A stretch of 64,000 nucleotides of DNA from an uncultured Mollicutes bacterium (GTDB lineage: Bacteria > Bacillota_I > Bacilli_A > RF39 > UBA660), in assembly GCA_900550145.1 (NCBI GenBank), contig URRF01000002.1, positions 5,228-69,227 on the forward strand, read 5' to 3'. This document shows, piece by piece, positions 10,661-56,750 of the stretch; position 1 is the first letter of the stretch; each line of letters begins with the position of its first letter. Made by a program: the position numbers and the translations under genes. The notes below the pieces were generated by a model. The model ran no database searches. It was not told the origin of the DNA and was given only the letters and a program-made list of their open reading frames with translations.

Positions 10661-13057
10661 ATGTATAATTTTAAAGAAATCGAAAAAAAATGGCAAAATT
10701 ATTGGGATAAGAACAACAGTTTTAAAACAAGCGATGACATGAGTAAAAAGAAATTTTATGGACTTGTTGAATTTCCATATCCAAGTGGTGCAGGAATGCA
10801 TGTGGGACACATAAAAGCATATAGTGGCCTTGAAGTTATAGCAAGAAAAAGAAGAATGGAAGGATATAACGTATTATTTCCTATTGGCTTTGATGCTTTC
10901 GGACTTCCTACTGAAAACTATGCAATAAAGACAAAAACTCACCCCAGAATAGTAACTGATAACAATATAAAAAGATTTACAGAGCAATTAAAAAAAGTTG
11001 GTTTTTCATTTGATTTTTCAAGAGCAATAGATACATCAGAAGAAAAATATTACAAATGGACACAATGGATATTCCTAAAAATGTATGAAAAAGGTCTTGT
11101 ATTTAAAGACAATACCTATGTTAACTATTGCCCTAGTTGTAAAGTAGTACTATCAAATGAAGATAGCCAAGGAGGAAAATGTGATATATGTCATTCAGAT
11201 ATTATTCAAAAACAAAAATTGGTATGGTATTTAAGAATAACAGAATATGCTGATAAATTACTTGATGGACTAAAAGAAGTAGATTATTTACCAAATATAA
11301 AACTTCAACAAGAGAACTGGATAGGTAAAAGCACTGGTGCATTTGTTGATTTTAAATTAAAAGAAGTAGATGAAACCTTAAGAATATATACAACTAGATG
11401 TGATACATTATTTGGAGTAACATTTATGGTTATCGCACCGGAACATCCTATAATAACTAAATATAAAGATAGAATTTCGAACATAAATACAGTTAAAGAA
11501 TATCAAGAAAAAGCAAGTAAAAAAACTGAATTTGAAAGAACTCAACTTATAAAAGACAAAACAGGAGTTAAAATAGAAGGAATAACAGCAATAAATCCAG
11601 TAAACAAAAAAGAAATACCAATATATATATCAGATTATGTAATGATGAACTATGGAACAGGTGCAATTATGGCAGTGCCTGCACACGATATGAGAGATTA
11701 TGAATTTGCACAGAAGTTTAATATAGACATTATACCAGTTATAAAAGGTGATACAAAAGATGGCGCATATATTGGTGATGGTATTCATATAAATTCAGAA
11801 TTCCTAAATAATTTAAACAAAGAAGATGCAATAGAAAAAATGCTTTTATATTTAAAAGAAAATGGTATTGGAGAAAAAGGTGTTCAATATAAGATGAAAG
11901 ATTGGGCATTCAATAGACAAAGATATTGGGGAGAACCAATTCCAATAATTTATTGTAATAAATGCGGAACAGTACCAGTTCCATATGAACAACTTCCACT
12001 AAAATTACCTAATATAACAAACTTTGAACCAGGAACAAATGGAGAAAGCCCACTTGCTAAAATTAGTGAATTCGTTAATTGTAAATGTCCAAAATGTGGT
12101 AGTGATGCAAAAAGAGAAACAGATACTATGCCACAATGGGCCGGATCCTCTTGGTATTATTTAAGATATATAGATCCATTAAATGATAAATGTTTTGCAG
12201 ATTACGATAAACTAAAATATTGGTTACCAGTTGATTGGTATAATGGTGGAATGGAACATGTTACAAGACACCTAATATATTCAAGATTTTGGCATAAATT
12301 TCTATATGACCTAAACGTAGTCCCAACAAAAGAACCATATAAAAGAAGAACTGCACAAGGTTTAATACTTGGACCAGATGGAGAAAAAATGAGCAAATCA
12401 AGAGGAAATGTAATTGATCCACTGGACATAATAGAAGAATATGGTGCAGATACACTTAGAACTTATGTGCTTTTTATGGGAGATTATAGTGTAGAATGTC
12501 CTTGGAATGAAGATGCAATAAAAGGAGTATTTAGATTCCTAGATAGAGTGTATAACTTAAAAAATAGAGTAAAAGAAGATAATAATTATACAAAGTCACT
12601 TGAAATTATAATAAACAAAACAATAAAAAAAGTTTCAAATGACATAGAAAACATGAAATTTAATACAGCAATAGCAGAACTTATGAAACTAATAAACACA
12701 TATTACGAATTAGAAAACATAACTACAAAAGATTATGAAACACTAATCAAATTATTATATCCATTCGCACCTCACATAACAGAAGAATTAAATAAAGAAG
12801 TTTTAAACAAAGATTCCTTAGTATATTCTAGTTATCCAACATATGAAGAAGAAAAAACAAAAGAAGATACATTTGAAATGATCATTCAAGTAAATGGCAA
12901 ATTAAGAGATAAAATAATAACTAAAACAGATATTACGGAAGAAGAAATGAAATCACTTGCACTTAATTCAGAAACTATAAAAAAATATACACTTGATAAA
13001 CAAATAATCAAAATAATAGTAGTAAAAGGAAAACTTATAAATATAGTAGTAAACTAG
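10661..13057 (+). CDS. leuS: leucyl-tRNA synthetase
   Basis: HMGH (HVGHIKAY) and KMSKS motifs; 798 aa; class I LeuS editing and anticodon domains. Confidence 0.95.
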   Translation: MYNFKEIEKKWQNYWDKNNSFKTSDDMSKKKFYGLVEFPYPSGAGMHVGHIKAYSGLEVIARKRRMEGYNVLFPIGFDAFGLPTENYAIKTKTHPRIVTDNNIKRFTEQLKKVGFSFDFSRAIDTSEEKYYKWTQWIFLKMYEKGLVFKDNTYVNYCPSCKVVLSNEDSQGGKCDICHSDIIQKQKLVWYLRITEYADKLLDGLKEVDYLPNIKLQQENWIGKSTGAFVDFKLKEVDETLRIYTTRCDTLFGVTFMVIAPEHPIITKYKDRISNINTVKEYQEKASKKTEFERTQLIKDKTGVKIEGITAINPVNKKEIPIYISDYVMMNYGTGAIMAVPAHDMRDYEFAQKFNIDIIPVIKGDTKDGAYIGDGIHINSEFLNNLNKEDAIEKMLLYLKENGIGEKGVQYKMKDWAFNRQRYWGEPIPIIYCNKCGTVPVPYEQLPLKLPNITNFEPGTNGESPLAKISEFVNCKCPKCGSDAKRETDTMPQWAGSSWYYLRYIDPLNDKCFADYDKLKYWLPVDWYNGGMEHVTRHLIYSRFWHKFLYDLNVVPTKEPYKRRTAQGLILGPDGEKMSKSRGNVIDPLDIIEEYGADTLRTYVLFMGDYSVECPWNEDAIKGVFRFLDRVYNLKNRVKEDNNYTKSLEIIINKTIKKVSNDIENMKFNTAIAELMKLINTYYELENITTKDYETLIKLLYPFAPHITEELNKEVLNKDSLVYSSYPTYEEEKTKEDTFEMIIQVNGKLRDKIITKTDITEEEMKSLALNSETIKKYTLDKQIIKIIVVKGKLINIVVN

Positions 13058-28287: not shown

Positions 28288-28629
28288 ATGACAACTATTA
28301 GTGAAATAAATGCTGCCATTCAAAGAGCAAATAACGAAATAGAAAAGTGTAATTCATTAAAAACAGCAATATCTGAGTTGTCGGAAAACATTATTTGTTG
28401 TACAAGCAAGTTAGAAGAAGCTTCTGATTTGATAAGCGATGGTTTAATAATTAATGGCAAATCAGCAGACGATGGATCAATATCTGAAATTTCAAATAAT
28501 ATAAAGAATGCTAAAGCAAATATAGAGGAAATTAATCCATCTATTGATACAAGAATACAAGAATTGCAAAAAAATATTGCTACTTGGAAAAATGAAATAA
28601 CACAATTACAAAAAACTACAAATGTATAA
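28288..28629 (+). CDS. small coiled-coil protein (hypothetical)
   Basis: 113 aa helical protein. Stop overlaps the start of the large hydrolase gene. Confidence 0.3.
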   Translation: MTTISEINAAIQRANNEIEKCNSLKTAISELSENIICCTSKLEEASDLISDGLIINGKSADDGSISEISNNIKNAKANIEEINPSIDTRIQELQKNIATWKNEITQLQKTTNV

Positions 28630-30946
28630 GAATGTAGCGGGTGATAGTATGAATAACAAATTTATATATAATGAGATTGCCATAAATGATTTAAAAAATT
28701 GTATTAATATTGCAATATCTTATGCAAACGAAATAAAAGAAAACATATCTTCTATAAATAATTTATTATCTTATATTAATATAAATAATAATATCTCAAG
28801 CTATTTAAATAATCTTAATAATGAATTAGATAGAATTTATAATATTCCAAAAGTAATAAACGAATGGGAATTTATTATATTAATTTCAAATGGTGATTTC
28901 AAATCAAAACTAAAAAGTTGGATACTAAATGGAGAAGTGACATGTGAAGATTTAGTAAATATGTCAGATTCCTATATGAAGGTCTTAGTAGCTATTAATG
29001 GTAACGACTACTATACGCAACTAAAAGAAATACAAAATCCATATGAAGCTTTAAAAGAAGCAGGAATGAATGAAGAATATTTAAATAAACTAAATGAGGC
29101 ATTCATAGAAAAACTAGTAGATGAAGATTTAATGTATACTGGTAAAGGTGTTGCTTATATGGCATATTCCTTTACTGGTCTTTTAGCAATGTTTGGTTTA
29201 GCACTTGATTATAATTTGGGTGGAAATTATGATAGCAAAGGAAAACATGGATTCTATCTAGGAAATAGTAAAGATAGCAATATGCTTGGAACATTAGACT
29301 GTAATAACTATTACGATTGGTTATGTAGATGTGTAGGAATTACTGGAGATAATAGTGGATATAGAGCAGTAGAAAAATATAAAAGAGGTGTAGATGGAAT
29401 AACACAAGAAGATAGAATTCAAGTAAATAGCAGTTCGCCAAATTATAAAACTGGTAATTCTGGAGACATAATGAACAATGAAAGACACATGATAGTTATT
29501 CTTGAAAATACAGGTAAAGGATACTGGATTTCAGAAGAATCTGCTTGTGCAAGAATACAATATCTTACATATGAAGAATGTGCTAAAAAAGGGTACTTAC
29601 TTAATGATATGAGTGCATTATATAGAAATACAAGTAAATCCCAAAGCAGAGCACAATATCAAGATAATAACTATATACCACCAGAAGTATACAAAAATTA
29701 TTTTGGAAATTTAAAAGAAGAAACAATGACTAAATTAATTGCACAATATAACAAGAGAAATTTAGCCAATTTTGATAAACAAACTATAATTAATATATTA
29801 AATAATGGTTACGATGATGGTTCAAATAGAATTACAAATATTTCAACACTACCTAATACAAACTATAATTATGATTTAAGATATGCACTTGATAACATTG
29901 ACAATATTGACTTTGATTCAGCGTGGGATAATAGTATCATGATAAATGTAATAGATGAAAAAACAAAAAATGCAATTGGCTCTTATCCTATAGATGAATA
30001 TGTAGCAGGAGTAATATTAGGTGAATCAGTAGCTAGAATGTATTATGAAGGATATTACGAAGGAAAAAACAATAATGGACAAGTTGCTACTGATGAAGAA
30101 ATGCTTGCATCAATGATGGCATTCGCAGTTTTAGCAAGATCATATGGAATTGCACAAACAGTTGAATCTCCTAGACACGCACAAGATCATAAAATAGAAG
30201 CTGGTTCTTCTAAACAATGGTTTAACGCTTCCCGTTTAAAAGGAAATGGAGAAAGAACTGCAGATGCAGAAACTGTACAAAAATGGGCAAAACTAGCCAA
30301 ATTAGCAGCATATCTAACATCAGGAAAAGTATTATCTTTAGATGGAGATAAAGTTACAAATGCAGGATATGGTTCAGGCAAACAGCATGAACTTATACAA
30401 TATGCAATAAATAATCACGAAACAGATTACACTAAAATACTAGAAAATTGTTATTCAAATGAAGATTATAAATGGGTAAAAGCAGGTACTGAAGTATATA
30501 ATTATAATTATTCTACTGAATCTATAAATAATAAATATAACAGTGTTGAAAGAATAGATGTAAAAGAACCACAAAACAACAATAATAATGAAACAATAAA
30601 AACAGGAAATACAAATAAAAATACCGAAACTACAAAAGAAATACCAAAAAAAGAAGACATAATAATAGAAGTACCAAAACCAAATCCAATAAATGTGTTA
30701 CCAGAAAATCTATTTAGTGATATAGTACCACCTCTAAAAGAAGGAAAACTAGGATATATGGAAATAAGTAATAAACACGTAATGTATGAATTAACAAATA
30801 TAAAAGAAACAGCATACAACAGTTACATATCATTACTTGAACAAAATGGCTTTACATTTAATGGAGAAGCATTTGTAAAAGAAAATTATATAGTTAACTT
30901 AAAATATGATAATAATACACTTTCATTAACAATAAATATAGTTTGA
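28622..30946 (+). CDS. multidomain cell-wall hydrolase-like protein: papain-like (NlpC/P60 or CHAP-type) Cys/His segment plus SpoIID/LytB-like domain; no signal peptide
   Basis: LDCNNYYDWLC ... GDIMNNERHMIVILENTGKGYWISE resembles a C40-type catalytic Cys/His pair. EYVAGVILGESVARMYYEGYY...MMAFAVLARSYG matches the SpoIID/LytB signature. No N-terminal hydrophobic signal. Confidence 0.45.
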   Translation: MYKNVAGDSMNNKFIYNEIAINDLKNCINIAISYANEIKENISSINNLLSYININNNISSYLNNLNNELDRIYNIPKVINEWEFIILISNGDFKSKLKSWILNGEVTCEDLVNMSDSYMKVLVAINGNDYYTQLKEIQNPYEALKEAGMNEEYLNKLNEAFIEKLVDEDLMYTGKGVAYMAYSFTGLLAMFGLALDYNLGGNYDSKGKHGFYLGNSKDSNMLGTLDCNNYYDWLCRCVGITGDNSGYRAVEKYKRGVDGITQEDRIQVNSSSPNYKTGNSGDIMNNERHMIVILENTGKGYWISEESACARIQYLTYEECAKKGYLLNDMSALYRNTSKSQSRAQYQDNNYIPPEVYKNYFGNLKEETMTKLIAQYNKRNLANFDKQTIINILNNGYDDGSNRITNISTLPNTNYNYDLRYALDNIDNIDFDSAWDNSIMINVIDEKTKNAIGSYPIDEYVAGVILGESVARMYYEGYYEGKNNNGQVATDEEMLASMMAFAVLARSYGIAQTVESPRHAQDHKIEAGSSKQWFNASRLKGNGERTADAETVQKWAKLAKLAAYLTSGKVLSLDGDKVTNAGYGSGKQHELIQYAINNHETDYTKILENCYSNEDYKWVKAGTEVYNYNYSTESINNKYNSVERIDVKEPQNNNNNETIKTGNTNKNTETTKEIPKKEDIIIEVPKPNPINVLPENLFSDIVPPLKEGKLGYMEISNKHVMYELTNIKETAYNSYISLLEQNGFTFNGEAFVKENYIVNLKYDNNTLSLTINIV

Positions 30947-33642: not shown

Positions 33643-33670
33643 TTGACAAATATTAAAAGTATGCTAAAAT
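33643..33670 (+). promoter_or_regulatory. sigma-A type promoter for the rel leader
   Basis: TTGACA, 16-nt spacer, TAAAAT. Confidence 0.5.
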
Positions 33671-33700: not shown

Positions 33701-33847
33701 ATGAAAAAAGATTCTATAATGGAATTATTAGATTTAATCAAAAAAATCAGTGCTAGGAATAAATATTATACTAACATTATTTACTCATGTTCTCTTTTAG
33801 ACTTAATTAGTAATAAGATAATAACGGTGACCGAAATTACATTATAA
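33701..33847 (+). CDS. 48-codon leader ORF upstream of rel (candidate regulatory leader peptide)
   Basis: Strong RBS (aagaggag) 8 nt upstream of the ATG. Ile/Leu-rich. Its stop lies in the loop of the hairpin at 33820-33872. Confidence 0.3.
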   Translation: MKKDSIMELLDLIKKISARNKYYTNIIYSCSLLDLISNKIITVTEITL

Positions 33848-33880
33848 TATAGTGTTTTTTGGCACCGTTATTTTATTTGT
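33820..33880 (+). promoter_or_regulatory. strong hairpin plus U-rich tract (candidate attenuator) immediately upstream of the rel RBS
   Basis: Perfect 10-bp arms AATAACGGTG / CACCGTTATT, extendable to about 15 bp, followed by TTTTATTTG. The rel RBS aggagg starts 7 nt downstream. Confidence 0.4.
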
Positions 33881-33894
33881 AGGAGGTGTTTTGA

Positions 33895-35337
33895 ATGAAT
33901 AACAGTATTACATTACAAGATTTATTGAATAAATTAAGAGAATATAATCCTGAAGAAGTAGAAATTGTTAAAAGAACTTACGAATACGCTGATACATTGC
34001 ATAAGGGGCAAATGAGACAAAGTGGCGAACCATATATTAGTCATCCATTAAATGTTGCATATATTTTGGCAGAGATGCATGCAGATAGAGATACAATATG
34101 TGCTGGACTACTTCATGATACTTTAGAAGATACAAAAGTGACTAAAGAAGAAATAGCGGAAAACTTTAACAGTGATGTCGCTAATTTAGTCGATGGAGTA
34201 ACCAAAATGAGCAAAATGAACTTTTCTTCGAAAGAAGATCAGAATTTAGCTAATACAAGAAAAATTATTACAGGGATAACAACAGACGTAAGAACAATTA
34301 TAATTAAATTGGCTGATAGACTTCATAACATGAGAACATTACAATTTAAATCGGAATTTAAGCAAAAAGAAAATGCACTTGAAACTATGGAAATATTTGT
34401 TCCACTTGCTTATTATATAGGTGCTTATAGAATAAAATCAGAGTTAGAGGATTTATCATTACAATATCTTAAACCAGATATGTATAAAAAAATAGAAGAA
34501 CGAAAATTAAGATTAGAAGAATCGAGCAATGATTGCTTAAAAGAAATGTTATATAAGATAGAAACTTTATTAAATGATAAAAACATACCTAATGAGATAA
34601 AGATAAGAACTAAAAATATTTATGGCATATATAAAAGATTAAATGAGGGTCATAAATTATCTGATATACATGATTTGTTGGCACTTAAAATAATGGTAGA
34701 TGAAGTAGAAAATTGCTATAGAACATTATATTTAATACATAATGAGTATCATCCAATAAATGATAAATTTAAAGATTATATTTGTAATCCAAAAACAAAT
34801 ATGTATCAAAGTTTGCATACAACAGTTTTTGGACCAGATGATAGATTGGTTCAAACTCAAATAAGAACTTTTGATATGGATAAGATAGCTTCATTCGGAT
34901 TATCTACATACTGGGATATAGAAAAAGGTAATGCAAGAGAAGTTATGCAAAAAGATTTAAGCGGCAAATATCAATTTTTCAATTCTTTAGTAGAAATAAA
35001 CAAAGTTTTTGGAGATAATAAAGAGTTTATAAATCAAGTTAAAAATGAACTGTTTTCAAATAAGATATATGTTTATACAACAAAAGGAGAAATAATGGAA
35101 CTTCCAAAGGGAGCTAGTGTGATAGATTTTGCTTATAAAATTCATACTGATGTTGGTAATACAATGGTGGCAGCACAAGTTAATAATGAATATGTTGATG
35201 TAATGACAGAACTAAAAAATAAAGACAGAGTAAAAATAATTACTGATGACTTATCATATGGACCAAGAGAGGATTGGGAAGATAAGGCAGTCACAACATA
35301 TGCAAAAAGAAAAATAAGAGAATTTAATAGGAGATAA
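33895..35337 (+). CDS. rel: RelA/SpoT-homolog (p)ppGpp synthetase/hydrolase, C-terminally truncated (HD + synthetase + TGS; no helical/ACT-RRM domains)
   Basis: HD motif LLHDTLEDT; synthetase motifs RLHNMRTL, KFKDYICNPKTNMYQSLHTT, IRTFDMDKIASFG; TGS segment YVYTTKGEIMELPKGASVIDFAY. 480 aa, versus about 730 for typical long Rel. Confidence 0.8.
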   Translation: MNNSITLQDLLNKLREYNPEEVEIVKRTYEYADTLHKGQMRQSGEPYISHPLNVAYILAEMHADRDTICAGLLHDTLEDTKVTKEEIAENFNSDVANLVDGVTKMSKMNFSSKEDQNLANTRKIITGITTDVRTIIIKLADRLHNMRTLQFKSEFKQKENALETMEIFVPLAYYIGAYRIKSELEDLSLQYLKPDMYKKIEERKLRLEESSNDCLKEMLYKIETLLNDKNIPNEIKIRTKNIYGIYKRLNEGHKLSDIHDLLALKIMVDEVENCYRTLYLIHNEYHPINDKFKDYICNPKTNMYQSLHTTVFGPDDRLVQTQIRTFDMDKIASFGLSTYWDIEKGNAREVMQKDLSGKYQFFNSLVEINKVFGDNKEFINQVKNELFSNKIYVYTTKGEIMELPKGASVIDFAYKIHTDVGNTMVAAQVNNEYVDVMTELKNKDRVKIITDDLSYGPREDWEDKAVTTYAKRKIREFNRR

Positions 35338-35342
35338 AAATT

Positions 35343-37163
35343 ATGCTAGATAAAATAAAAAATGATATTTTGAAAAATAAAAGAGAAATAATAGAGATTT
35401 TGTCAATAATAGAAAACAAATCTGTGGCTAGTGAAGAAATAGAATTATGTATAAAAGCATTAGGGCATAGTCAAAAATATTCTGAAAAAAAAATTAAAGT
35501 GATTTCATCATATTTGCCGATGAATTTGCCATTATATTCCTTAATAACATATGTGATAATCCCAAGATTAAACGCCGATACATGTAATTATAGGCCTTCA
35601 ACAAAAACACTTGAAATATCAAAAAAACTTCATAAATTACTCAAATTGGATTCGTATAATATAAACCTATTTGAGGGGACTAGGTTTGACTATAATAAGA
35701 ATCTTGTTAAAAATTCAGATGTAGTTATATTTATAGGCAAGCCATCTAACGCTGAGAAATTAACGAAAGAACTTTCATCAAATACACTATTTATATATTT
35801 TGGTGTTGGTCAAAACCCGGCCATTATAGCAAATGATGCCAATTTAGAACTTGCGAGTGAAAAAATTGCTGATTCTATAATGTTTAATTATGGTCAAGAT
35901 TGCGCTAAGCCAAATGTAATATTATGTAAGAGCACTATGTACCCGGAGTTTAAAAAAAAGTTATTAACTGCCATATATAATAGATTAGAACAAAAAACAA
36001 CTATAAAAAAATTGGAAGTTTTTAAGGATGTTATTAATCTCTTGATTAGAGATAAAGCATATGTAGAATTTGGAGGCAATATAAATATACCAAACCAAAC
36101 AATTGACCCTATTATTGTGACAAAAAAATTTTCTGACTTAAAATCTAATTATGATGAATATTATGCGCCGGTGTTTAGAATAATGTTATATGATAATGTT
36201 AATGATTTAAAAAAATATTTTTCAAATCAGAAATATAAAGATGAAAATATGAATATTTCTTTGTTTGGAAATTCAAGATATATTGAAAAGTTACCAGCAT
36301 CATTAGTGTTGAATAATGAAATTGTGTCTGATATAGACAATGGTTTTTGTGAATATGGAGGCTATGGTAAGAACACATCATATTTATCATATAAAGGAGT
36401 TACCATTAATAAACCATTACTTATTAATAGAGAAATTAATGATTTTTACAATAATGAAAGTTTTGTTAATTCGGCACAAAGTTTATCAAAATATAATGTT
36501 AAAAATGATACAAAATTAAAAAAAATAATGTTGAGTGAATATGAAGATAGAATTAGAACACTTTTTGGTAGTAATTTAAATTTTTCGTTTATTTTTGGTT
36601 CTTATGCAAAAAGACTCGAAAAACAAACCTCTGATGTTGATATGTTTGTATGTTTAGACGGAGAAGATAAGTTCGCTATTAATGAATTTAGAAATTGGTA
36701 TTTTAAATTTCATTATATGTATGGAAAATTTCCTGATGTTTTGTATCCGGGAGAAGTAGTAACTAGAGAAAAATTAGAAAGTATAATTGATAATAATTAT
36801 AATGTTAATTTTAATGTAATTAATGATTCTGATACGTTTGATTCATTATTTTACACCCAAATATTTACTGACAAAAAAATCAACATTATTGGGGATCAAA
36901 AAAATTTAATGGAATATGAAAAAAAATTTCAAAAATTTGTACCAGATTTTTGTGAAGCAATATTTGAAACGTTGAAAAAGAATGACAAAATTAGAGATGA
37001 TAGAGATTATATGAAGTGTTTGATTGCGTTGTCATGCAATGATCTCCTATTTTTTGGAAGAAAACTTGATTTTGAAAAAACACCACAGATGTATAATGAT
37101 ATTATTGATGAATTAGATGATGGTTTTTTGGGAAAATGTATAAAAAAAAGACAATTATTATAA
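35343..37163 (+). CDS. fusion protein: ALDH-fold domain (aldehyde dehydrogenase/acyl-CoA reductase-like) + C-terminal Pol-beta-type nucleotidyltransferase domain
   Basis: N-terminal half has PMNLP (PWNFP-like), a FGVGQNP Gly motif and MFNYGQDCAKPNV (catalytic Cys box FxNxGQxC). C-terminal half has FGSYAKRLEKQTSDVDMFV (minimal NTase hG[GS]x9-13DhD). Starts 5 nt after the rel stop. Confidence 0.55.
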   Translation: MLDKIKNDILKNKREIIEILSIIENKSVASEEIELCIKALGHSQKYSEKKIKVISSYLPMNLPLYSLITYVIIPRLNADTCNYRPSTKTLEISKKLHKLLKLDSYNINLFEGTRFDYNKNLVKNSDVVIFIGKPSNAEKLTKELSSNTLFIYFGVGQNPAIIANDANLELASEKIADSIMFNYGQDCAKPNVILCKSTMYPEFKKKLLTAIYNRLEQKTTIKKLEVFKDVINLLIRDKAYVEFGGNINIPNQTIDPIIVTKKFSDLKSNYDEYYAPVFRIMLYDNVNDLKKYFSNQKYKDENMNISLFGNSRYIEKLPASLVLNNEIVSDIDNGFCEYGGYGKNTSYLSYKGVTINKPLLINREINDFYNNESFVNSAQSLSKYNVKNDTKLKKIMLSEYEDRIRTLFGSNLNFSFIFGSYAKRLEKQTSDVDMFVCLDGEDKFAINEFRNWYFKFHYMYGKFPDVLYPGEVVTREKLESIIDNNYNVNFNVINDSDTFDSLFYTQIFTDKKINIIGDQKNLMEYEKKFQKFVPDFCEAIFETLKKNDKIRDDRDYMKCLIALSCNDLLFFGRKLDFEKTPQMYNDIIDELDDGFLGKCIKKRQLL

Positions 37164-37220: not shown

Positions 37221-38972
37221 ATGATAAATTTTATAAAAGAACAAGAAAAAAAACTGAAGAAAATTATCTTAGAATGTGGATATTCAATTGAAAATGTAAA
37301 TATAGTTCCGTCTTCGAGACCGGATTTAGGACAGTATCAATTTAATGGAGTTATGGAATTAGCTAAAATGAGTAAAACAAATCCAAGAATAATAGCAAAC
37401 TTAATTGTAGAAAAAATGTGTGATGATGATGATTATAAGGATGTAAATGTGGCTGGGCCTGGTTTTATAAATATAACTTTTTCTGATAAACTATTATCTA
37501 ATTATATCGAATCTACTAGAAAATATCATAATTATGATAAAAATACAATAAAAAGAAAAAAGATAGTTATAGATTATGGTGGACCTAATGTTGCAAAAAC
37601 TCTTCATGTTGGTCACTTGCGTAGTGCCAACATAGGAGAAGCCTTAAAAAGATTAAGTAAACAACTTAATTATGATGTTATAAGTGATATTCACTTAGGC
37701 GATTGGGGACGCCCAATGGGATTAATAATGTTGGAATTGAAGAAAAAACATCCAGATTGGGTTTATTTTGATGAAAATTTTAATGGAGAATATCCAAAAA
37801 GATGCCCTATTAGCAATGAAGATTTGGAAAAGCTTTATCCAATAGCAAGCGCAAAGGCTAAAATTGATGAACAGTATTTAAAAGAGGCAAGGGATATTAC
37901 AACAAAATTACAAAAAAAGCAACAAGGTTATTATGAATTGTGGAAACAAATTATAGCTATTTCAATATCAGAAATAAAACGTTTGTATGATAAATTGAAT
38001 GTATCTTTTGATTTATGGAATGGAGAAAGTGATTCTGATAAATATGTTTTAGATGTAATAAATTATTTAAAAGAAAAAGGATTAGTATACGAGAGTGATG
38101 GTGCTCTGGTTATGGATGTTAGTTTACCAGGAGATACTGTTAATATTCCACCATTATTGTTAATTAAATCTAATGGTGCTATTTCATATGAAACAACAGA
38201 TTTAGCAACATTATGGGATAGAGTTAATAGTATTAAACCAGATGAAATCTGGTATGTAGTTGATAAACGACAATCATTGCACTTTGAACAAGTTTTTAGA
38301 GCTGCTTACAAATCAGGTATTGTTCCGAAAAGTGTAAAATTAGAATTCGTTGGATTTGGTACAATGAATGGCAAAGATGGCAAACCATTTAAAACTAGGG
38401 ATGGGAGTGTTATGACGCTTTCTGCCCTAATTGAGTCTATAAAACATGAAACATTAAAAAAATTAAACCCAAATATAGTTGGTGATGCAAGAGATGAAAT
38501 ATCTGATTTAATAGCAGTTGGGGCTTTAAAATATGCTGATTTACTTCCTAACAGAAGTACTGACTATATATTTGATGAAGATAAGTTTAGTGATTTTAAC
38601 GGAAAAACCGGTGTTTATTTATTGTATTCTACAATTAGAATGAAAACATTATTGATGAAAGCTAAAGAACAAAATGTAGAAATAGGTCCGATAAATGTAT
38701 TTGTGAATGATTTTGATAGGAACATTGCATTAAAATTATTAGAAACTCCAGTTGTTTTAGATAAGGCATTTAAGGATAAATCTCTTAATGAAATAGCAGA
38801 ATATTTATATCAATTAATTAATATTTTTAATAATTTTTATGCTTCAAATCATATTTTAGCTCAAACAAATGACAAAATAAAACAATCATGGTTAGGCTTG
38901 GTTGAAACCGTTTATAATACTAGTTCTGAATTATTAGATGTTATGGGCATAGAACAGCCAAAAAGAATGTAA
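37221..38972 (+). CDS. argS: arginyl-tRNA synthetase
   Basis: HVGH (TLHVGHLRSA) class I motif; N-terminal add-1 domain; C-terminal DALR anticodon-binding domain; 583 aa. Confidence 0.95.
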   Translation: MINFIKEQEKKLKKIILECGYSIENVNIVPSSRPDLGQYQFNGVMELAKMSKTNPRIIANLIVEKMCDDDDYKDVNVAGPGFINITFSDKLLSNYIESTRKYHNYDKNTIKRKKIVIDYGGPNVAKTLHVGHLRSANIGEALKRLSKQLNYDVISDIHLGDWGRPMGLIMLELKKKHPDWVYFDENFNGEYPKRCPISNEDLEKLYPIASAKAKIDEQYLKEARDITTKLQKKQQGYYELWKQIIAISISEIKRLYDKLNVSFDLWNGESDSDKYVLDVINYLKEKGLVYESDGALVMDVSLPGDTVNIPPLLLIKSNGAISYETTDLATLWDRVNSIKPDEIWYVVDKRQSLHFEQVFRAAYKSGIVPKSVKLEFVGFGTMNGKDGKPFKTRDGSVMTLSALIESIKHETLKKLNPNIVGDARDEISDLIAVGALKYADLLPNRSTDYIFDEDKFSDFNGKTGVYLLYSTIRMKTLLMKAKEQNVEIGPINVFVNDFDRNIALKLLETPVVLDKAFKDKSLNEIAEYLYQLINIFNNFYASNHILAQTNDKIKQSWLGLVETVYNTSSELLDVMGIEQPKRM

Positions 38973-38998: not shown

Positions 38999-39730
38999 TT
39001 GAATAAGTGTGTACTTATAACAGGTGCTACAAGAGGAATAGGACGAGCTACTGCTATTAAATTCGCAAAATCAGGTTACGATGTAATAATAAATTATTTG
39101 AATAATGATGATTTGGCAGAGAAATTAAAAGAAGAGCTGATTTCGAAATATTCAGCAAATATTACTCTTATTAAAGCAAATGTTAAGATCGAACAAGATG
39201 TGATTAAGTTAAAAAATGAAGTGTATAAAAAATATAAAAAAATAGATGTTTTAGTAAATAATGCTGGAGTTATTTCTGATAAAGAATTTCGAGACAGAAC
39301 AATAGATGACTTTAATGCTATTATAGGTGCTAATTTAGCTAGTGTTTTTTTAATGAGCAAATATTTTGGATTTGAAATGTATAAAGAGCATACAGGAAAA
39401 ATAATAAATATTTCTTCTACAAATGGTATAAATTCATACACACCTACTACTATAGATTATGATGCGGCAAAAGCGGGAGTGATATCTATGACAAAAAATC
39501 TAGCTGTGGAATTTTCTCCTTATGTTAATGTTAACTCTGTTGCTCCAGGATGGGTTGATACTGATATGAATAAAGATCTTCCCACTAAATTGTTGGAAGA
39601 AGAAAAGAGAAAAATTTTACTAAAACGATTTGCAAAACCAGAAGAAATAGCAAATGTTATATATTTTTTATCAAGCGATGAGTCATCATATGTAAATGGT
39701 CAAACAATAATAGTTGATGGGGGATATTAA
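38999..39730 (+). CDS. short-chain dehydrogenase/reductase (FabG-like 3-oxoacyl-ACP reductase family), TTG start
   Basis: LITGATRGIGRA Rossmann motif; NNAG; YxxxK (YDAAK) catalytic motif. Confidence 0.8.
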   Translation: MNKCVLITGATRGIGRATAIKFAKSGYDVIINYLNNDDLAEKLKEELISKYSANITLIKANVKIEQDVIKLKNEVYKKYKKIDVLVNNAGVISDKEFRDRTIDDFNAIIGANLASVFLMSKYFGFEMYKEHTGKIINISSTNGINSYTPTTIDYDAAKAGVISMTKNLAVEFSPYVNVNSVAPGWVDTDMNKDLPTKLLEEEKRKILLKRFAKPEEIANVIYFLSSDESSYVNGQTIIVDGGY

Positions 39731-39732
39731 TT

Positions 39733-40920
39733 ATGAATAAATTTGATAATGTGTTTATAGAAAATGATTTTGTAATTCCTGATTATAATAATTTGAATAT
39801 TGTTGATTTAGCTAAATACTTGTATAGTTGTTATGGAATAGAATCTGATTTCAATAAAAATTTTGAAAAATTTCAAAAATTGATTCCGAAAAATAAACAC
39901 ACTTTATTAATTTTATCAGACGGAATGGGATCAAATATCATAGAAAAGATACCTGATGATAACATTATCAAAAAAAATAAAGTTAGTGATATGATAACTG
40001 TTTTTCCTAGCACAACTGCTTGTGTTCTTACTTCATTAGTTACAGCTAAATATCCTTCGGAACATGGAATTTGGGGTTGGTATAATTACTATAGACCAAA
40101 AAATGTAAATTATTATCCATTACTTTTTTTGGAAAGAGGTAGTAATAAACCATTGTCTAATTTTGGAATTTCTCCTAAGGATATATTTATTTCAGAATCG
40201 AAATTAAAACATCTTAATTGCAAAACAACCATTTTGTTTCCGAAAGATATTAATGATAGCATTTATTCTGATTTTGTATCGTTTAAAAAAAATAGATTTG
40301 GATATAAGGATTTTAATGATATTGTTGATATCTTTAAAAAAGAATGTTTAAATTATGAAACTACTTTTACCTATTTATATTTGCCAGATATTGATAGCAT
40401 TGAGCATGATTATGGAATTGATGACGAAAAAGTTTTTAGAAAATTGAATGAAATAAGTGCTTTAGTTGAAAAATTATCAAAAATAGATGATTTAACAATA
40501 ATTGTAACAGCTGATCATGGGCAAATAAATATACATGAAGATGTTATAATGGATTATAATAAATATAATAAATATTTTTATTCGGAGCCTACTATTGATT
40601 TTGGAACAGCTTTTTATTATGTCAAAGAAGAAATGAGAAAAGACTTTGTGAATGAATTTAACAAGGATTTTAAAAACGAAATGTATTTATTTGAAACAAG
40701 TGAATTTATTAAAAAAAATATATTTAGTTTATATAAATTAGATAACTATTCAAAAGAAGGTTTAGGTGAATTTATAAGTTTGTGTAAACCTGGATTTTGT
40801 TTTATAAATTCCCAAAATGTAAAAGAATATTATCGAAAAACCTTAGGAAATCACTCTGGTTTAACGAGGGATGAAATGATTATTCCTTTGATAATAATTA
40901 GTTCAAAAAATATTAGTTAA
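39733..40920 (+). CDS. alkaline-phosphatase-superfamily phosphodiesterase/nucleotide pyrophosphatase-like protein
   Basis: LILSDGMGSN and TADHGQ metal-ligand motifs typical of type I phosphodiesterase/AlkP-like enzymes. Confidence 0.55.
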   Translation: MNKFDNVFIENDFVIPDYNNLNIVDLAKYLYSCYGIESDFNKNFEKFQKLIPKNKHTLLILSDGMGSNIIEKIPDDNIIKKNKVSDMITVFPSTTACVLTSLVTAKYPSEHGIWGWYNYYRPKNVNYYPLLFLERGSNKPLSNFGISPKDIFISESKLKHLNCKTTILFPKDINDSIYSDFVSFKKNRFGYKDFNDIVDIFKKECLNYETTFTYLYLPDIDSIEHDYGIDDEKVFRKLNEISALVEKLSKIDDLTIIVTADHGQINIHEDVIMDYNKYNKYFYSEPTIDFGTAFYYVKEEMRKDFVNEFNKDFKNEMYLFETSEFIKKNIFSLYKLDNYSKEGLGEFISLCKPGFCFINSQNVKEYYRKTLGNHSGLTRDEMIIPLIIISSKNIS

Positions 40921-40941: not shown

Positions 40942-41154
40942 ATGAAAAAGATTTTAATAAATGATATACCTACAAAGGAAATAAATATAGATAGTGATAT
41001 ATTATTAATTGATTTGTTAGTACTATGTTCTTTGACTAAGTATAAAACAGAAGCTAAAAGGTTGACTTTGCAAAATGGAATTAAAATAGATGGAGAAAAA
41101 GAAAAATACTATGTTAAGGATCATCATATTCCAATTATATCAAGAGAACTTTGA
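40942..41154 (+). pseudogene. 3' fragment of a second, diverged tyrS (C-terminal S4 domain only)
   Basis: LIDLLVLCSLTKYKTEAKRLTLQNGIKIDGEKE matches the TyrS C-terminal S4 module. No upstream catalytic domain. Diverged from the resident tyrS C-terminus. Confidence 0.5.
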
Positions 41155-41940
41155 AATAAATGCCAAGAAATATTAAACAAAAGAAGAAATGAAATGTCAG
41201 AGAAAGAACATCATTCTAAACATTATTGCTATAGATATACATTTAGTTCTAAAATTGAATGCGGTATATGTGGCTCAAATTATGTCCATAGAATAAGCTG
41301 TAATCAAAAAGGAAAGAAATATTTCTATTGGTCTTGTTATAATAAAGTTACTTTAAAGGAAAAATGTCCCAAATCATTAACAATTAGAGAAGATATATTA
41401 AAAGAAATGTTTATTGAAGTTTATAACTCAATTACAACTCAAAAGCATAAAACGAGAGATAGACTAATAAAAGCAATAAAAGAAACTATAACTAGCGAAG
41501 ATAATAAGAAGGAATTGAGTAAACTTTATAGTGAAGTACAAACTTTACAAAAAAGACTATCTAATTTAATTGATTTAAAACTTTATAGAATAGAAAACAA
41601 AGATGTCTATAATGAAAAAGAAAAAGAAATTTCAAATAAAATAAAAATGCTAAATGAACAAATTGAACTGTTAGAATATAAAGATAAACAGAATAAAGAT
41701 ATATCTAAAAGACTTAAAGACATTGAGAAAATCATAAATAAAGAAGAACAACCAATGGAAATGTTTGATGATGTTAAATTTGAAAATTTAGTAGAAAAAA
41801 TAATTATAGGCGAACAAGATAGAGATGGTTATATTAATTCTAATACTATAAGATTTGTTCTAAAAATTGGTACAGAGTATAAATTTAAAGATTTGTCATT
41901 TGTGCCAAACAAGAAATATAGGTGCAGTAGAGAGTTCTAA
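41155..41940 (+). pseudogene. C-terminal fragment of a large serine recombinase (zinc-ribbon + coiled-coil), abutting the tyrS fragment
   Basis: CGICGSNYVHRISCNQKGKKYFYWSC zinc ribbon followed by a coiled coil. The N-terminal resolvase and recombinase domains are absent. The frame is open from 41155, immediately after the tyrS-fragment stop. Confidence 0.55.
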
Positions 41941-42381: not shown

Positions 42382-42414
42382 AAAAAGAGTGCATTTATAA
42401 AATGCATTCTTTTA
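42381..42414. terminator. bidirectional terminator between the remnant ORF (+) and rpsD (-)
   Basis: GAGTGCATTT-ataa-AAATGCATTC hairpin flanked by A6 and T4. Confidence 0.6.
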
Positions 42415-51201: not shown

Positions 51202-53403
51202 ATGTCAGAACAAAATATAGTTGTATCAATAATTTCTTTAATAAACATTATAATATTAATGTTTGTTTTCTTTGGTAAAGAACATATAAAAACTGTTGAA
51301 ACAAATCTTTATCAAGCATTACTTGTAAATAGTTTTATTACACCAGTTTTAGAAATCATATGTTACTTTACTGTAAAATTTGGATTAAAACATTTTTCAT
51401 TTACATATGCAATATTAAATAAATTAATATTAATATCATATGTAACATGGATATTGTTATTTTTGCTTTACGTTATAACAATTCTTTTAAATATTTCAAA
51501 ACAAAAATTCAGAAAATTCTTATATATATACTTAGGAATTGGTTTACTAATAATAACTCTAATTATAATAAACAAATTAGAATTTAAAACAATAGATAAC
51601 CTAATAATACCTAGTGGTTTACCATCAGTAATTGTATACTTAACAGCTGGAATATCAGATTTTATAATGATTATATTACTATTATTTAATATAAAAAAAG
51701 CAACAAGTAAAAAACTAATACCATTATACACTATGTTAGCTTTTGGTATTATGGCAATGATATTTCAAAGCACAAATCCACAATACTTTTTACTTACATC
51801 AGTATTAATTTATACAACTATTATTATGTATTTCACAATAGAAAATCCAGATTTAAAAATGATAAGTGAATTAAATATGGCAAAAGAACACGCAGAAAAA
51901 GCAAATAGAGCAAAAAGCGATTTTTTAAGTAGTATGAGTCATGAAATAAGGACACCACTTAATGCAATAGTCGGGTTATCAGAAGATATAGAAGGAAGAG
52001 AAGATTGCCCTAATTCTATTAAAGATGATTTAAGTGATATTGTATCCGCATCACATACACTTCTTGAAATAGTTGGTAATATAATGGATATTAATAAGAT
52101 TGAAAGCAATAAAGTAGAAATAATTGAAATACCTTATGATTTCAAAACAGAACTTGAAACCTTATGTAGAGTAAATAAGATAAGAATTAAAGATAAACCA
52201 ATTGATTTTAGCGTAGATATCGCACCAGATATACCATATGAATTATTAGGAGATAAACCACATATTAAACAAATTATTAACAACCTAGTTTCTAATGCTA
52301 TAAAATATACAAATAGTGGGTTTGTAAAAGTAAGTGCAAAATGCATAAATAAAGATAATATATCAACAATAATACTTACTGTACATGATTCAGGAATTGG
52401 TATCAAAGAAGAAAATATAAAAAAATTATTTACTAAATTTGAACGATTAGATGTAGAAAAAAATACAACAACAGAAGGTACAGGACTAGGACTTGCAATA
52501 ACTAAAAAATTAGTTGAACTTATGGGTGGGAAAATAAATGTGTCATCACAATATGGAAGTGGTTCTATATTTATGGTTACTATTCCACAGAAAATAAGTA
52601 AAATTAATGAGGAATTAACAAATACGCAAAAATTAAATTTAGGAATAAATGTTAAGAATGTAGATTGTAGTAATAAATCTATTCTGGTTGTTGATGATAA
52701 CAAATTAAATATAAAAGTAGCAAGAAGAAGTATAGAAGCACTTGGGTTTAAAAATATAGATGAATGTTATAATGGACAAGAATGTTTAGACAAAATAAAA
52801 AATGGTAATTACTATGATGTGATTCTTATGGATATAATGATGCCTATTATGAATGGAGAAAAATGTATACAAGAATTAAAACAGATACCTAATTTTGATA
52901 CACCAGTTATTGCACTTACAGCAGATGCAGTAGCTGGTTCAGAAGAAAAATATAAGTCCGAAGGATTTATAGATTACATAGCAAAACCATTTAGTAAAGA
53001 CCAAATAAAAGAAAAACTGGATAACATATTAACAAATCAAACTCCTACTAACGAAAAATACTTAGAAGAAAATAACATAGATTATAAAAAAGGAATAGAA
53101 TTATTCGGAAGTATAGAAATGTATAAAGAAATGTTAAAAGAATGGTATAAAACAATAAATAACAAATGGGAAAAAATAGTTACATATAAAAATAATAAAG
53201 ATATGACTAACTATAGTATAGAAGTGCATTCATTAAAAAGTGATTCAAAATATTTTGGATTTACTAAATTAATAGAATTATCATTAAATCATGAACTAAA
53301 AAGTAAAGAGAATGATATAGAATATGTAAATAATAATTTTAATGAGTTAGAGATTGAATATAGGAGAATTATGAATATAGTAAATAACTATTTAAATAAA
53401 TGA
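51202..53403 (+). CDS. hybrid sensor histidine kinase (multi-TM sensor, HisKA, HATPase, REC, HPt)
   Basis: About 6 N-terminal TM helices; H-box [11 protein letters not shown]; G-boxes [18 protein letters not shown]; [13 protein letters not shown]...[10 protein letters not shown]; C-terminal HPt (HSLKSD). Confidence 0.85.
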
Positions 53404-54494: not shown

Positions 54495-56750
54495 ATGAGC
54501 AATTTATATTTCCCAATATGTGCCTTATTTATCTCATCATTATTATTAATTATATTTTTTTCTAAAGAAAGAATAAATATTTTAGATACAAAGCTATTTT
54601 CATTTTTATTAATTGTTAATTTTCTTGATTCATTACTTAATACCATAATAATATATTTAGGTTATACCAAACCAACAGGAATTACTTTAATAAAAATTTT
54701 AAATAGAATTGATTTTCCTTTATATATTTTATGGGCATGGCTATTTTTCTTATATATTTTTCATATAAGTACAGAAAAGAAAAAAACTCATAATTTATTT
54801 AAAATTATATTTAATATTAGTTTAGTTATTAATATTATTGCTATTTTATTTTCTATAATTTTACCTTTTGAAATACAAAATTCAAATAATATTATGTATG
54901 CTTATGGAAATAGTGTAAATGTTTTATATATAATGTGTGGTATATATATGTTTCTAACTTTATTTTGTGTTTTATTAAATATAAAAAGATTATTAAATAA
55001 AAAATATGCACCCGTTTATGTATTAATATTGTTTGCATTTATCATTGGGTATATTAGATTAATTAATCCAAGCTTAATACTCATCTCGGCTGTTATCTCT
55101 TATATTAACTTAATTCTTTATTTTACAATAGAAAATCCAGATATGAAAATGATAAGTGAGTTAAATGTTGCTAAGAATAATGCAGAAAAAGCAAATAGGG
55201 CAAAGAGTGATTTTTTATCAAGTATGTCACATGAAATAAGGACACCACTTAATGCAATTGTAGGTTTATCAGAAGATATAAAAGAAAGAGGAACATGTCC
55301 TGATAATATGAAGGAAGATTTAAATGATATTGTTTCTGCTTCTCATACTTTACTTGAAATAGTAGGTAATATAATGGATATTAATAAAATAGAAAGTGAT
55401 AAGATTAAGATTACAGAAATGCCATATAATTTTAGGGAAGAATTAGAAACTTTATGTAGAGTAAATAAAGTAAGAATAGGTGATAAACAAATTGATTTTA
55501 GAGTAAATATCGCACCTGATATTCCATATGAGTTATTAGGAGATAAACCTCATATCAAACAAGTAATTAATAATCTTGTATCTAACGCGATTAAGTATAC
55601 TAATGAAGGATTTATAGAAGTAAACGCTAAATGTATAAATAAAGATAATATATCAACAATAATCCTTACTGTACAAGATTCAGGTATGGGTATTAAAGAA
55701 GAGAATATAAAAAAATTATTTACAAAGTTTGAAAGATTAGATGTAGAAAGAAATACTACTGCAGAAGGAACAGGACTAGGTCTTGCAATAACTAAGAAAT
55801 TAGTTGAATTAATGGGTGGTAAAATAAATGTATCATCACAATATGGAACTGGTTCAATGTTTATGGTACAAATACCACAAAAGATAAGTAAGATGAATAG
55901 TGATTTAACAAATACACAAAAATTAAATCTAGGTTTAAATATTAAAAATATAGATTGTAGTAATAAATCTATCCTTGTTGTTGATGATAATAAACTAAAT
56001 ATCAAGGTAGCAAGAAGAAACATAGAGGCACTAGGATTTAAAACAATAGATGAATGCTATAATGGTAGTGAATGTTTAGAAAAGATAAAAAATGGTAATA
56101 GGTATGATTTAATATTAATGGATATAATGATGCCTGTTATGAGTGGAGAAACTTGTATAAAAGAATTAAAACAAATACCTAATTTTAAAATACCAGTAAT
56201 TGCATTAACTGCGGATGCAATATCTGGTGCAGAAGAAAAATATAAATCTATTGGATTTATTGACTATTTATCAAAACCATTTACTAAAGACCAAATAAAA
56301 GAAAAAATATCAAATTTATTTGATACTTCGGAACATGTTAATGTGAATGTAGAGGTACGTGCAGAGAATACTGAAGTTATATCAAGTGATAATTCTAAGG
56401 AAGATTATTTGAAAGAAAATAATATAGATTATAATAAGGGAATAGAATTATTTGGTAGTATGGATATGTATAATAGTATGTTATCTGATTGGTATAAAGG
56501 AATAAATGATAAATGGAATAAGATAATTAGTTATAAGAATAATAATGATATGACTAATTATGCAATAGAAGTACACTCATTAAAAAGTGACGCTAAATAC
56601 TTTGGATTTACTAAGTTAGCAGAGTTATCATTAAATCATGAATTAAAAAGTAAAGATAATGATATAGATTATGTTAATAGTAATTTTAGTGAGTTAGAGT
56701 TAGAATATAAAAGAATTCTAAATATAGTAGATAATTATTTAAATAAGTAA
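54495..56750 (+). CDS. hybrid sensor histidine kinase, paralog of 51202-53403
   Basis: Same domain order. HisKA through HPt is strongly similar to kinase 1. The N-terminal TM sensor is more diverged. Confidence 0.85.

Follow-up and report, generated by a model that had tools for sequence, protein, structure and literature searches.

Why a (p)ppGpp enzyme of the Rel family should sit immediately upstream of a protein that joins an aldehyde dehydrogenase (ALDH) fold to a nucleotidyltransferase (NTase) is the question raised by a 64,000-nucleotide stretch of DNA from an uncultured Mollicutes bacterium (GenBank assembly GCA_900550145.1, contig URRF01000002.1, positions 5,228 to 69,227 of the forward strand; hereafter the window). 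The first gene of the pair, rel480, codes for a long RelA/SpoT homolog (RSH) of 480 residues and the second, here termed aldL-nt, for a protein of 606 residues that begins with an ALDH-like (ALDHL) domain. The original prediction, made from the letters of the window alone, took the coupling to a (p)ppGpp enzyme to suggest a nucleotide-modifying or alarmone-linked module. Comparison across genomes gives a different answer: the persistent genomic partner of the NTase/ALDHL pair is an arginine (or lysine) aminoacylation enzyme and not Rel, and the juxtaposition with rel is a local arrangement.

The gene pair itself is confirmed as real. The predicted lengths of the two proteins and the 5-nucleotide gap between their genes match the open reading frames (ORFs), both on the forward strand (Table 1), and a pair with the same two lengths is called on four independent metagenome contigs. 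This recurrence, along with the constant length of the closest Rel proteins described below, rules out a frameshift or mis-assembly of rel, a frameshift being one of the outcomes that the prediction had named as refuting it. The Shine-Dalgarno sequence of aldL-nt lies within the final codons of rel, suggesting that translation of the two genes may be coupled. The G+C content is flat over the region and the neighbouring genes are of the housekeeping type (tyrS, rlmH, argS, rpsD, ezrA and leuS, the last with a T-box upstream), which rules out a mobile element or foreign DNA. The lineage consists of gut Bacillota with small genomes of 26% G+C, the closest named relatives being 'Clostridium sp. 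CAG:710' and 'uncultured Tenericutes' UMGS1185.

Arginine and lysine aminoacylation enzymes as the persistent partners

A scan of one genome per species recovered 72 ALDHL loci (individual loci, here and below, carry L numbers where they need to be told apart). The rel gene precedes the ALDHL/NTase gene only in the window and its close relatives among the gut Bacilli (L001-L006, L009 and L077); it is not adjacent in L007 (59% identity), L078 (56%), L079 (49%) or L010 (40%), nor in other phyla. In contrast to this narrow distribution, which undercuts the proposed coupling to a (p)ppGpp enzyme, the gene for arginyl-tRNA synthetase (ArgRS), argS, which in the window starts just beyond the coordinates of the prediction, persists as a neighbour across phyla. 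Leaving aside the fusions to lysyl-tRNA synthetase (LysRS), it lies within 3.1 kb of ALDHL in 20 of 37 loci, being directly adjacent in 12, and its placement may be upstream, downstream, co-directional, convergent or divergent. The argS-linked loci come from Bacilli, several classes of Patescibacteria, Bdellovibrionales, a metagenome-assembled genome (MAG) of Pseudomonadota, a Bathymodiolus symbiont and an Acidimicrobiales MAG, with three further cases in L077, L078 and L079. Two archaeal-labelled MAGs also show the linkage; their loci are 60-79% identical to a Paceibacterota locus, and hence represent one lineage whose binning is doubtful. The loci concerned (L046, L048 and L069, labelled Woesearchaeota, Nanohaloarchaea and Paceibacterota) share this level of identity in both ArgRS and ALDHL, pointing to either a wrong MAG taxonomy or a recent transfer, and the 'archaeal' occurrence calls for caution. 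Between lineages, the ArgRS neighbours reach an identity of only 22-30%, as against 30-50% for the ALDHL domains. As the ArgRS neighbours diverge more than the ALDHL domains, a travelling or co-transferred argS cassette is ruled out, and the linkage is to the argS belonging to each lineage.

When 1.84 billion representative proteins were searched with a profile of the family, 409 ALDHL clusters were retrieved at E<1e-30, a number that rises to 2079 at E<1e-10. Several architectures recur among the loci. Besides the ALDHL+NTase form of the window (600-710 residues), the two domains occur in the reverse order, either fused (~547 residues) or split into two adjacent genes; apart from the LysRS fusions, ALDHL always comes with a KNTase-like NTase in one of these forms. 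Proteins of ~940-990 residues in Photorhabdus, Xenorhabdus, Pseudomonas and Brenneria join a class I LysRS to ALDHL, and the opposite order, ALDHL followed by class I LysRS, is found for instance in a Saccharibacteria MAG; the LysRS is complete in these class I fusions, whichever the order, and that of the Saccharibacteria MAG (L067) passes the lysS_arch model TIGR00467 (369 bits against a cut-off of 147.55). Actinomycete loci (Saccharothrix and others) code for proteins of 944-991 residues, for which the Pfam scan of L054 returned the Aldedh domain only. A single metagenome protein combines a complete class II LysRS with ALDHL, and the top hits of its synthetase part in the PDB are without exception lysine-tRNA ligases (E 2e-88). 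On account of the recurrent argS linkage and the LysRS fusions, the functional partner of the family is identified as the arginine or lysine aminoacylation enzyme. ArgRS and class I LysRS belong to the group of four synthetases in which amino acid activation depends on tRNA (PMC2034488).

The remaining partners are of a different kind. A PhnP-like phosphodiesterase of the MBL fold, which RNase Z models also match weakly, lies near ALDHL in 7 loci, and in 5 loci a gene for a SAM methyltransferase separates ALDHL from argS. GNAT genes are adjacent in 3 loci and fused in 2, a short-chain dehydrogenase/reductase (SDR) is found nearby in 4 loci including the window, P-loop kinase-like proteins stand beside ALDHL in Rickettsiales, and an MFS transporter adjoins 22 of the LysRS fusions. 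Occasional fusions link ALDHL to ankyrin repeats (in Babeliaceae), GNAT, methyltransferase, aminotransferase, MBL, AstE/AspA and PLD domains, the PLD and aminotransferase fusions also counting among the recurrent small-molecule partners. What these other partners have in common is that they work on small amine-bearing molecules, whether by acetylation, methylation, phosphorylation, nucleotidylation, reduction or export. On a Babeliaceae chromosome (L032, 5281-7893), an ALDHL/NTase protein with N-terminal ankyrin repeats adjoins a GNAT gene; such an architecture is typical of proteins that are delivered into eukaryotic hosts.

The family as a whole is concentrated in reduced-genome, host-dependent lineages. 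Pfam and NCBIfam hold no specific model for it, its members carry only automatic names in the source databases, and no description of the family, its fusions or its neighbourhood was found in the literature; a paper on MetRS paralogues and another on tRNA deacylases are unrelated to ALDHL. The label 'lysyl-tRNA synthetase class 1' that JGI attaches to some members probably derives from the LysRS fusion proteins. The domain combination had been put forward as unfamiliar, and no characterised counterpart emerged from these searches; the family thus appears new to the libraries and literature searched, but it is built from known folds and explicable by known chemistry. The scan of one genome per species did not return the species of the window itself (100% identity), even though proteins of that species are found on >150 public contigs; the nearest hit of the scan is UMGS1185, at 74%.

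Active sites of the 606-residue protein and of Rel480

Pfam assigns to the 606-residue protein matches to Aldedh (63.9 bits, cut-off 23), LuxC (25.8, cut-off 21), Polbeta (27.3, cut-off 26.9) and NTP_transf_2 (21.6, cut-off 21). With all scores above the cut-offs and the motifs all present (PMNLP at residue 59, GQDCAKP at 184 and FGSYAK...SDVDMF at 418-435), the ALDH and NTase assignments of the original prediction stand. Its description of the ALDH fold as complete goes too far: the domain has the fold, the catalytic Cys and the oxyanion Asn but is shortened and lacks the general-base Glu. The Aldedh match covers profile positions 129-394 of 461, and only ~58 residues precede the PxNxP motif, as compared with roughly 130-170 in the aligned ALDHs. 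In an AlphaFold2 model of the whole protein built with 25 homologues (pLDDT 91.8, pTM 0.89), residues ~1-400 superpose over ~400 columns on solved ALDHs, including S. aureus AldH (Foldseek E 5e-19), GapN and ALDH3A1.

Inspection of residue conservation across 25, 48 and 137 homologues shows that N61, G132, C187 and E272, corresponding to Asn169, Gly245, Cys302 and Glu399 of ALDHs, are invariant or nearly so. Of the positions equivalent to the NAD(P)-contacting G245, E399 and K192, the first two are thus retained as G132 and E272, and the third is conserved in the alignments as Arg or Lys (R84 in the window). The residue just before the catalytic Cys, D186, is always Asp, a feature specific to the ALDHL family, and the position of the general base, Glu268, is occupied throughout by an invariant glycine (G154) within 'FGVGQNP' or 'NGxGHNP'. 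All NCBIfam ALDH equivalogs score far under their cut-offs. An enzyme that depends on Cys and NAD(P) but has no base for hydrolysis would be expected to carry out either acyl-enzyme reduction or a non-hydrolytic acyl transfer. The LuxC match (PF05893) fits this expectation, even though it is weak and confined to residues 116-216.

In the C-terminal half, the GS...DxD motif and a third carboxylate (D465/E471) are conserved in the family. When modelled separately (residues 383-606, AlphaFold2 pLDDT 89.6), this region finds its best structural matches in ANT(4')/KNTase, AAD(9) and LinB (6un8, 1kny, 6sxj, 3jyy), followed by MntA; the similarity is weak throughout (E 2e-4 to 1e-3, TM ~0.4, 11-14% identity). 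A type VII toxin-antitoxin system of the MntA/HepT kind was rejected, as the NF047752 score of 22 bits falls far below the cut-off of 60 and a HEPN gene was not found nearby, and so was an anti-phage defence module, PADLOC giving only weak matches to the NTase core (PDC-S09).

Turning to Rel480, the truncation after the TGS domain that had been noticed from the sequence is borne out. Pfam matches HD_4 at residues 29-173 (143 bits), RelA_SpoT at 238-341 (99 bits) and TGS at 391-450 (72 bits); the protein spans positions 2-449 of 687 in TIGR00691; and it aligns with residues 7-482 of B. subtilis Rel (6yxa), its end coinciding with the start of the helical domain. The C-terminal region is hence reduced to TGS alone, the helical, zinc-finger/CC and ACT/RRM domains being missing. 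Among the 120 closest protein clusters (84-100% identity, from many contigs of which the longest measures 1.33 Mb), 105 are exactly 480 residues long and all of these end just past TGS, one cluster being named Clostridium sp. CAG:710. The truncation is therefore lineage-wide, a conserved and selectively maintained trait of these gut bacteria.

The idea that loss of the regulatory domains would leave the synthetase unrestrained is not supported by its active site. The catalytic Glu of the synthetase (E324 in B. subtilis Rel, E323 in RelSeq, E319 in SpoT) is replaced by Gln in Rel480 (Q320) and in 120 of the 120 closest clusters, so that, with the synthetase Asp kept (D260; D264 in RelSeq), the pair of catalytic carboxylates of long RSH enzymes is incomplete. 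Further changes relative to 6yxa include R to K in 'AxRI', 'GRFKDY' to 'DKFKDY' and 'AAHW' to 'STYW', and the equivalents of RelSeq R269 and R295 are also altered. The HDTLED motif of the HD hydrolase is retained in 119 of the 120 clusters. The E323Q substitution renders synthetase activity undetectable in RelSeq (PMC13299517), and E. coli SpoT E319Q shows no synthesis and normal hydrolysis (PMC6085430). The Gln at the catalytic Glu position, the degenerate synthetase positions and the intact HD site together suggest that Rel480 is most likely a hydrolase-only RSH of HD-pseudoSYNTH-TGS architecture and not an unrestrained synthetase, and most likely one that no longer senses the ribosome. Searches with phmmer, in which the HD, SYNTH and TGS segments were compared with all six-frame ORFs, revealed no other HD, SYNTH or TGS fragment, separate Rel C-terminus or small alarmone synthetase in the window.

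Two known RSH types offer partial parallels. Bacillus RshC (HD-SYNTH-TGS; Atkinson et al. 2011) likewise ends within the helical domain and keeps TGS; it is, however, classed [HS] and forms a monophyletic Bacillus clade, being found in six strains as an additional copy beside a full Rel (PMC3153485), whereas Rel480 is lineage-wide and its synthetase looks dead. Hydrolase-only SpoT proteins retain an inactive SYNTH domain, as Rel480 seems to (PMC9974481). They possess a full C-terminal region, whereas Rel480 joins truncation with a dead-looking synthetase. As a natural HD-pseudoSYNTH-TGS protein, Rel480 lends itself to studying the role of TGS without ribosome-binding domains and alarmone handling in a reduced genome.

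Operon layout and surrounding genes

The region reads as a co-directional housekeeping operon comprising a 48-residue ORF, rel480, aldL-nt, argS and genes for an SDR and a phosphodiesterase (Table 1). A promoter-like site lies upstream of both the 48-residue leader ORF and rel. The 3' part of the interval 33701-33894 holds an imperfect inverted repeat, ATAACGGTG...CACCGTTAT, followed by a T-run and then by the ribosome-binding site of rel; Rfam gave no match in this interval, and the short ORF and the repeat may regulate the operon as a leader peptide or an attenuator. Pattern searches found no terminator-like site between rel and aldL-nt, nor any on the forward strand before 42383, and argS has a promoter-like site of its own, a weaker pattern match than the one upstream of the leader. 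Since the first forward-strand terminator-like hairpin appears only at that point, the genes from rel480 through aldL-nt, argS and SDR to the phosphodiesterase are probably co-transcribed as one long unit in the lineage of the window.

Table 1. Features of the rel480/aldL-nt region, in window coordinates
Feature	Coordinates	Strand	Remarks
Sigma-70-like promoter match	33643..33670	+	TTGACA-16-TAAAAT with TG; 11/12 consensus positions; best in 32.8-42.5 kb; consensus match only
48-residue ORF before rel	33701..33847	+	Gene called at the same spot in L001-L004 and L077
rel480, long-RSH Rel ending just past TGS	33895..35337	+	HD 33979-34413, (pseudo)SYNTH 34606-34917, TGS 35065-35244
Gln320 codon CAA at synthetase catalytic Glu	34852..34854	+	6yxa alignment, 'lEvQIRT' vs 'vQtQIRT'
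Shine-Dalgarno AGGAGA of aldL-nt	35329..35334	+	8 nt before ATG; read from sequence
aldL-nt, 606-residue protein	35343..37163	+	
ALDHL domain, residues ~1-375	35343..36467	+	N61 (PMNLP), G132, C187 (codon 35901-35903), D186, E272; general-base Glu absent
Pol-beta-type NTase and C-terminal helical domain, ANT(4')/KNTase-like	36540..37163	+	G419-S420, D431, D433, D465/E471
argS, canonical arginine-tRNA ligase	37221..38972	+	TIGR00456 387 bits vs cut-off 261.65
FabG-like SDR	38999..39730	+	Under every equivalog cut-off; also near ALDHL/NTase in L005, L006, L010, L017
Alkaline-phosphatase-superfamily phosphodiesterase (PF01663), ENPP-type	39733..40920	+	Bacilli-clade neighbour: L005, L006, L007, L009, L021, L077
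First forward-strand terminator-like hairpin after the promoter-like site	42383..42413	+	Pattern match only

Several other features of the window deserve mention. Downstream of the phosphodiesterase lie a 70-residue ORF (40942-41154) with a weak match to a TyrRS-C-terminal/S4-like domain and a 248-residue ORF (41194-41940) resembling Zn-ribbon recombinases; these stand apart in the window and in L001-L003 and form a single 332-residue gene in L004, an arrangement that reflects either a split gene or strain variation. In L001-L004 (16.9-18.7 kb), a SAM methyltransferase and an IS-type transposase (rve, HTH_Tnp_1) lie between the Zn-ribbon gene and rpsD, both of which are missing from ~41.9-42.4 kb of the window. 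A T-box leader (10458-10635; 98.5 bits, gathering score 93) directly precedes the leucyl-tRNA synthetase gene (10661-13057), an ordinary arrangement which indicates that the lineage still has tRNA-sensing riboswitches. A 774-residue Asn-rich protein without a Pfam match (28622-30946), whose counterparts in L001-L004 measure 812-815 residues, is possibly a variable protein that is either secreted or exposed at the cell surface. Two paralogous hybrid histidine kinases of HisKA-HATPase-receiver architecture, of 733 and 751 residues, lie ~1 kb apart (51202-53403 and 54495-56750), and a similar kinase is found near the ALDHL-argS pair of L078. Almost all long ORFs of the window are on the forward strand and the cumulative GC skew climbs monotonically, on which grounds the window can be placed on the leading strand of one replichore.

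A possible chemistry, its rivals and known parallels

Mechanistic analogy with LuxC/LuxE, glutamyl-tRNA reductase (GluTR) and LysX leads to a reading that we favour tentatively, while rating it as somewhat short of probable: ALDHL could be a LuxC/GluTR-like reductase acting on activated arginine, with its product nucleotidylated by the NTase half. An arginyl group made by ArgRS, presented as Arg-tRNA(Arg) or as enzyme-bound Arg-AMP, would be transferred to Cys187, with D186 holding its alpha-ammonium group. NAD(P)H would then reduce the Cys187 thioester to argininal, reduction and not hydrolysis being anticipated because the general-base Glu is absent. The ANT-like half might O-nucleotidylate a hydroxyl of the product, be it the aldehyde or, after an SDR step, the alcohol. 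Enzymes specific to each lineage (phosphodiesterases, N-acetyl- or N-methyltransferases and kinases) could then turn over or tailor what results.

A number of points weigh against this scheme. Its substrate, redox direction and NTase acceptor are all reached by inference. ArgRS is never fused to ALDHL and is found adjacent only, and the LysRS fusions are without an NTase, so that one scheme fails to explain the role of this domain. The class II LysRS fusion comes from a single metagenome contig whose DNA does not match the stored protein and carries little weight. Further, 17 of the 37 loci show no argS in the sequence examined, several of them ending at contig ends, and the loci of Rickettsiales, Legionella and Babeliaceae are without argS. 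A drain on Arg-tRNA in a tiny genome would require tight control. As to Rel480, its hydrolase-only status is read from one residue and motif decay, and a source of alarmone was not found within the window.

A bolder version of the reductase reading, which we regard as unlikely, would make ALDHL the first ALDH-fold aminoacyl-tRNA reductase and, with the NTase, the producer of an aminoalkyl-nucleotide used on hosts or competitors. Arg-tRNA, or Lys-tRNA in the LysRS fusions, would be converted to the amino aldehyde or alcohol and thence to the aminoalkyl-nucleotide. Argininol-AMP, for instance, would be a non-hydrolysable mimic of the aminoacyl-adenylate and thus a synthetase inhibitor, the aldehyde could inhibit proteases, and the linked argS might be the supplier of substrate, a resistant target, or both. 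The users would be host-dependent microbes, among them Patescibacteria, archaeal-labelled MAGs that are possibly DPANN, Rickettsiales and Legionella, and additionally Babeliaceae, with their ankyrin-tagged version, and insect or plant pathogens with an MFS exporter.

The alarmone-linked module, in which ALDHL::NTase would either have (p)ppGpp or a similar nucleotide as its target or stand in for the missing regulatory C-terminus of Rel in trans, draws on the tight spacing of the two genes, with the Shine-Dalgarno sequence inside rel and no terminator-like site between them, and on retention of the pair in the window and the eight related loci listed above. We nevertheless consider it very unlikely, in that rel is absent from the immediate neighbourhood in L007, L078, L079, L010 and other phyla, the family is common in genomes in which ALDHL adjoins argS or is fused to LysRS, and it is not obvious what the invariant Cys, Asn and NAD-contacting residues would do in the modification of a nucleotide. 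It is conceivable, at most, that an alarmone hydrolase with a tRNA-end-binding TGS is co-regulated with an Arg-tRNA-linked enzyme. A system for repair or modification of tRNA(Arg) or tRNA(Lys), directed at the 3'-end or at damage, would account for the linkage of the NTase with argS and a PhnP-like MBL of the cyclic-phosphodiesterase type, for the weak RNase Z matches and the recurrent SAM methyltransferase, and for the need of both partner synthetases for tRNA in activation: the NTase would rebuild the tRNA end, the PhnP-like or ENPP enzyme open a cyclic phosphate, the methyltransferase cap and the synthetase recharge. However, it offers no explanation for the invariant ALDH active site; the NTase looks like the O-adenylyltransferases of small molecules and not like CCA-adding enzymes; the GNAT, aminotransferase, AstE/AspA, SDR and MFS partners suggest a small amine-bearing metabolite; and the NTase is missing from the LysRS fusions, which makes such a system improbable.

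The direction of the redox step could also be reversed, with ALDHL oxidising a basic amino aldehyde to an acyl-thioester or acid in a salvage route that feeds arginine or lysine to the adjacent or fused synthetase in auxotrophs dependent on a host, the NTase being regulatory. The concentration of the family in reduced-genome, host-dependent lineages and the conservation of the hydride-transfer residues are in line with this, and physical linkage to the aminoacyl-tRNA synthetase would permit channelling; yet the general base for hydrolytic release is missing family-wide, and both the LuxC-like signal and the MFS exporters beside the gammaproteobacterial fusions fit production instead, rendering salvage quite unlikely. 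Finally, an ordinary detoxifying ALDH might have been fused fortuitously to an NTase of the antibiotic-resistance or MntA-like toxin-antitoxin type, with the gene order a product of genome compaction. That the Pfam matches are to generic Aldedh and Polbeta models, with the weak MntA and PADLOC hits coming from the NTase core, would suit this explanation, but we find it extremely unlikely given the failure of every ALDH equivalog, the lost general base, an MntA score well below threshold without a HEPN partner, and the recurrence across phyla of both the NTase+ALDHL pairing and the argS/LysRS linkage.

Should the favoured reductase chemistry hold true, it would constitute a new synthetase-dependent route from arginine or lysine to reduced, nucleotidylated amines, by way of an ALDH-fold reductase in place of a nonribosomal peptide synthetase or GluTR. 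It would be present in hundreds of protein clusters, concentrated in organisms that have the surface or the interior of other cells as their habitat. A conserved protein which in Patescibacteria, gut RF39-like Bacilli and several pathogens is still called 'hypothetical' would thereby gain a function open to testing, and the short list of enzymes diverting aminoacyl-tRNA from translation would grow by one.

Among known systems, LuxC/LuxE provides a parallel within the ALDH superfamily: LuxC, like ALDHL, is a Cys enzyme in which the hydrolytic general base is absent, fitting the reduction of an acyl-enzyme to an aldehyde. LuxC is obligatorily paired with an ATP-dependent acyl-activating enzyme, and for ALDHL, fusion or adjacency points to a partner synthetase. 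In contrast to LuxC, ALDHL is presumed to work with an aminoacyl-tRNA synthetase, encoded next to it in the case of ArgRS and fused to it in that of LysRS, and not with an acyl-protein synthetase, and to act on a basic amino acid; additionally, it comes with an ANT-like NTase, its ALDH domain is the shorter one and its sequence similarity to LuxC is marginal. GluTR (HemA) is a mechanistic analogue only: its Cys takes the aminoacyl group from a charged tRNA, and reduction of the thioester with NADPH yields an amino aldehyde, the tRNA having been charged by a tRNA-dependent class I synthetase, as in the scheme proposed for ALDHL. Its fold, however, is unrelated, and ALDHL is not a member of that family. 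LysX (LysRS-MprF), like other synthetase paralogues dedicated to non-ribosomal use of aminoacyl-tRNA, resembles the LysRS-ALDHL fusions in joining a complete LysRS to the expected consumer of its product. This consumer is a GNAT-fold transferase in LysX and an ALDH-like oxidoreductase in the fusions, whereas the argS of the window is of the housekeeping type and unfused. ANT(4')/KNTase, AAD(9) and LinB, for their part, share with the NTase of the window a two-domain architecture of NTase and helical domains, the GS...DxD motif and the third carboxylate, but in the window these are fused to an ALDHL domain.

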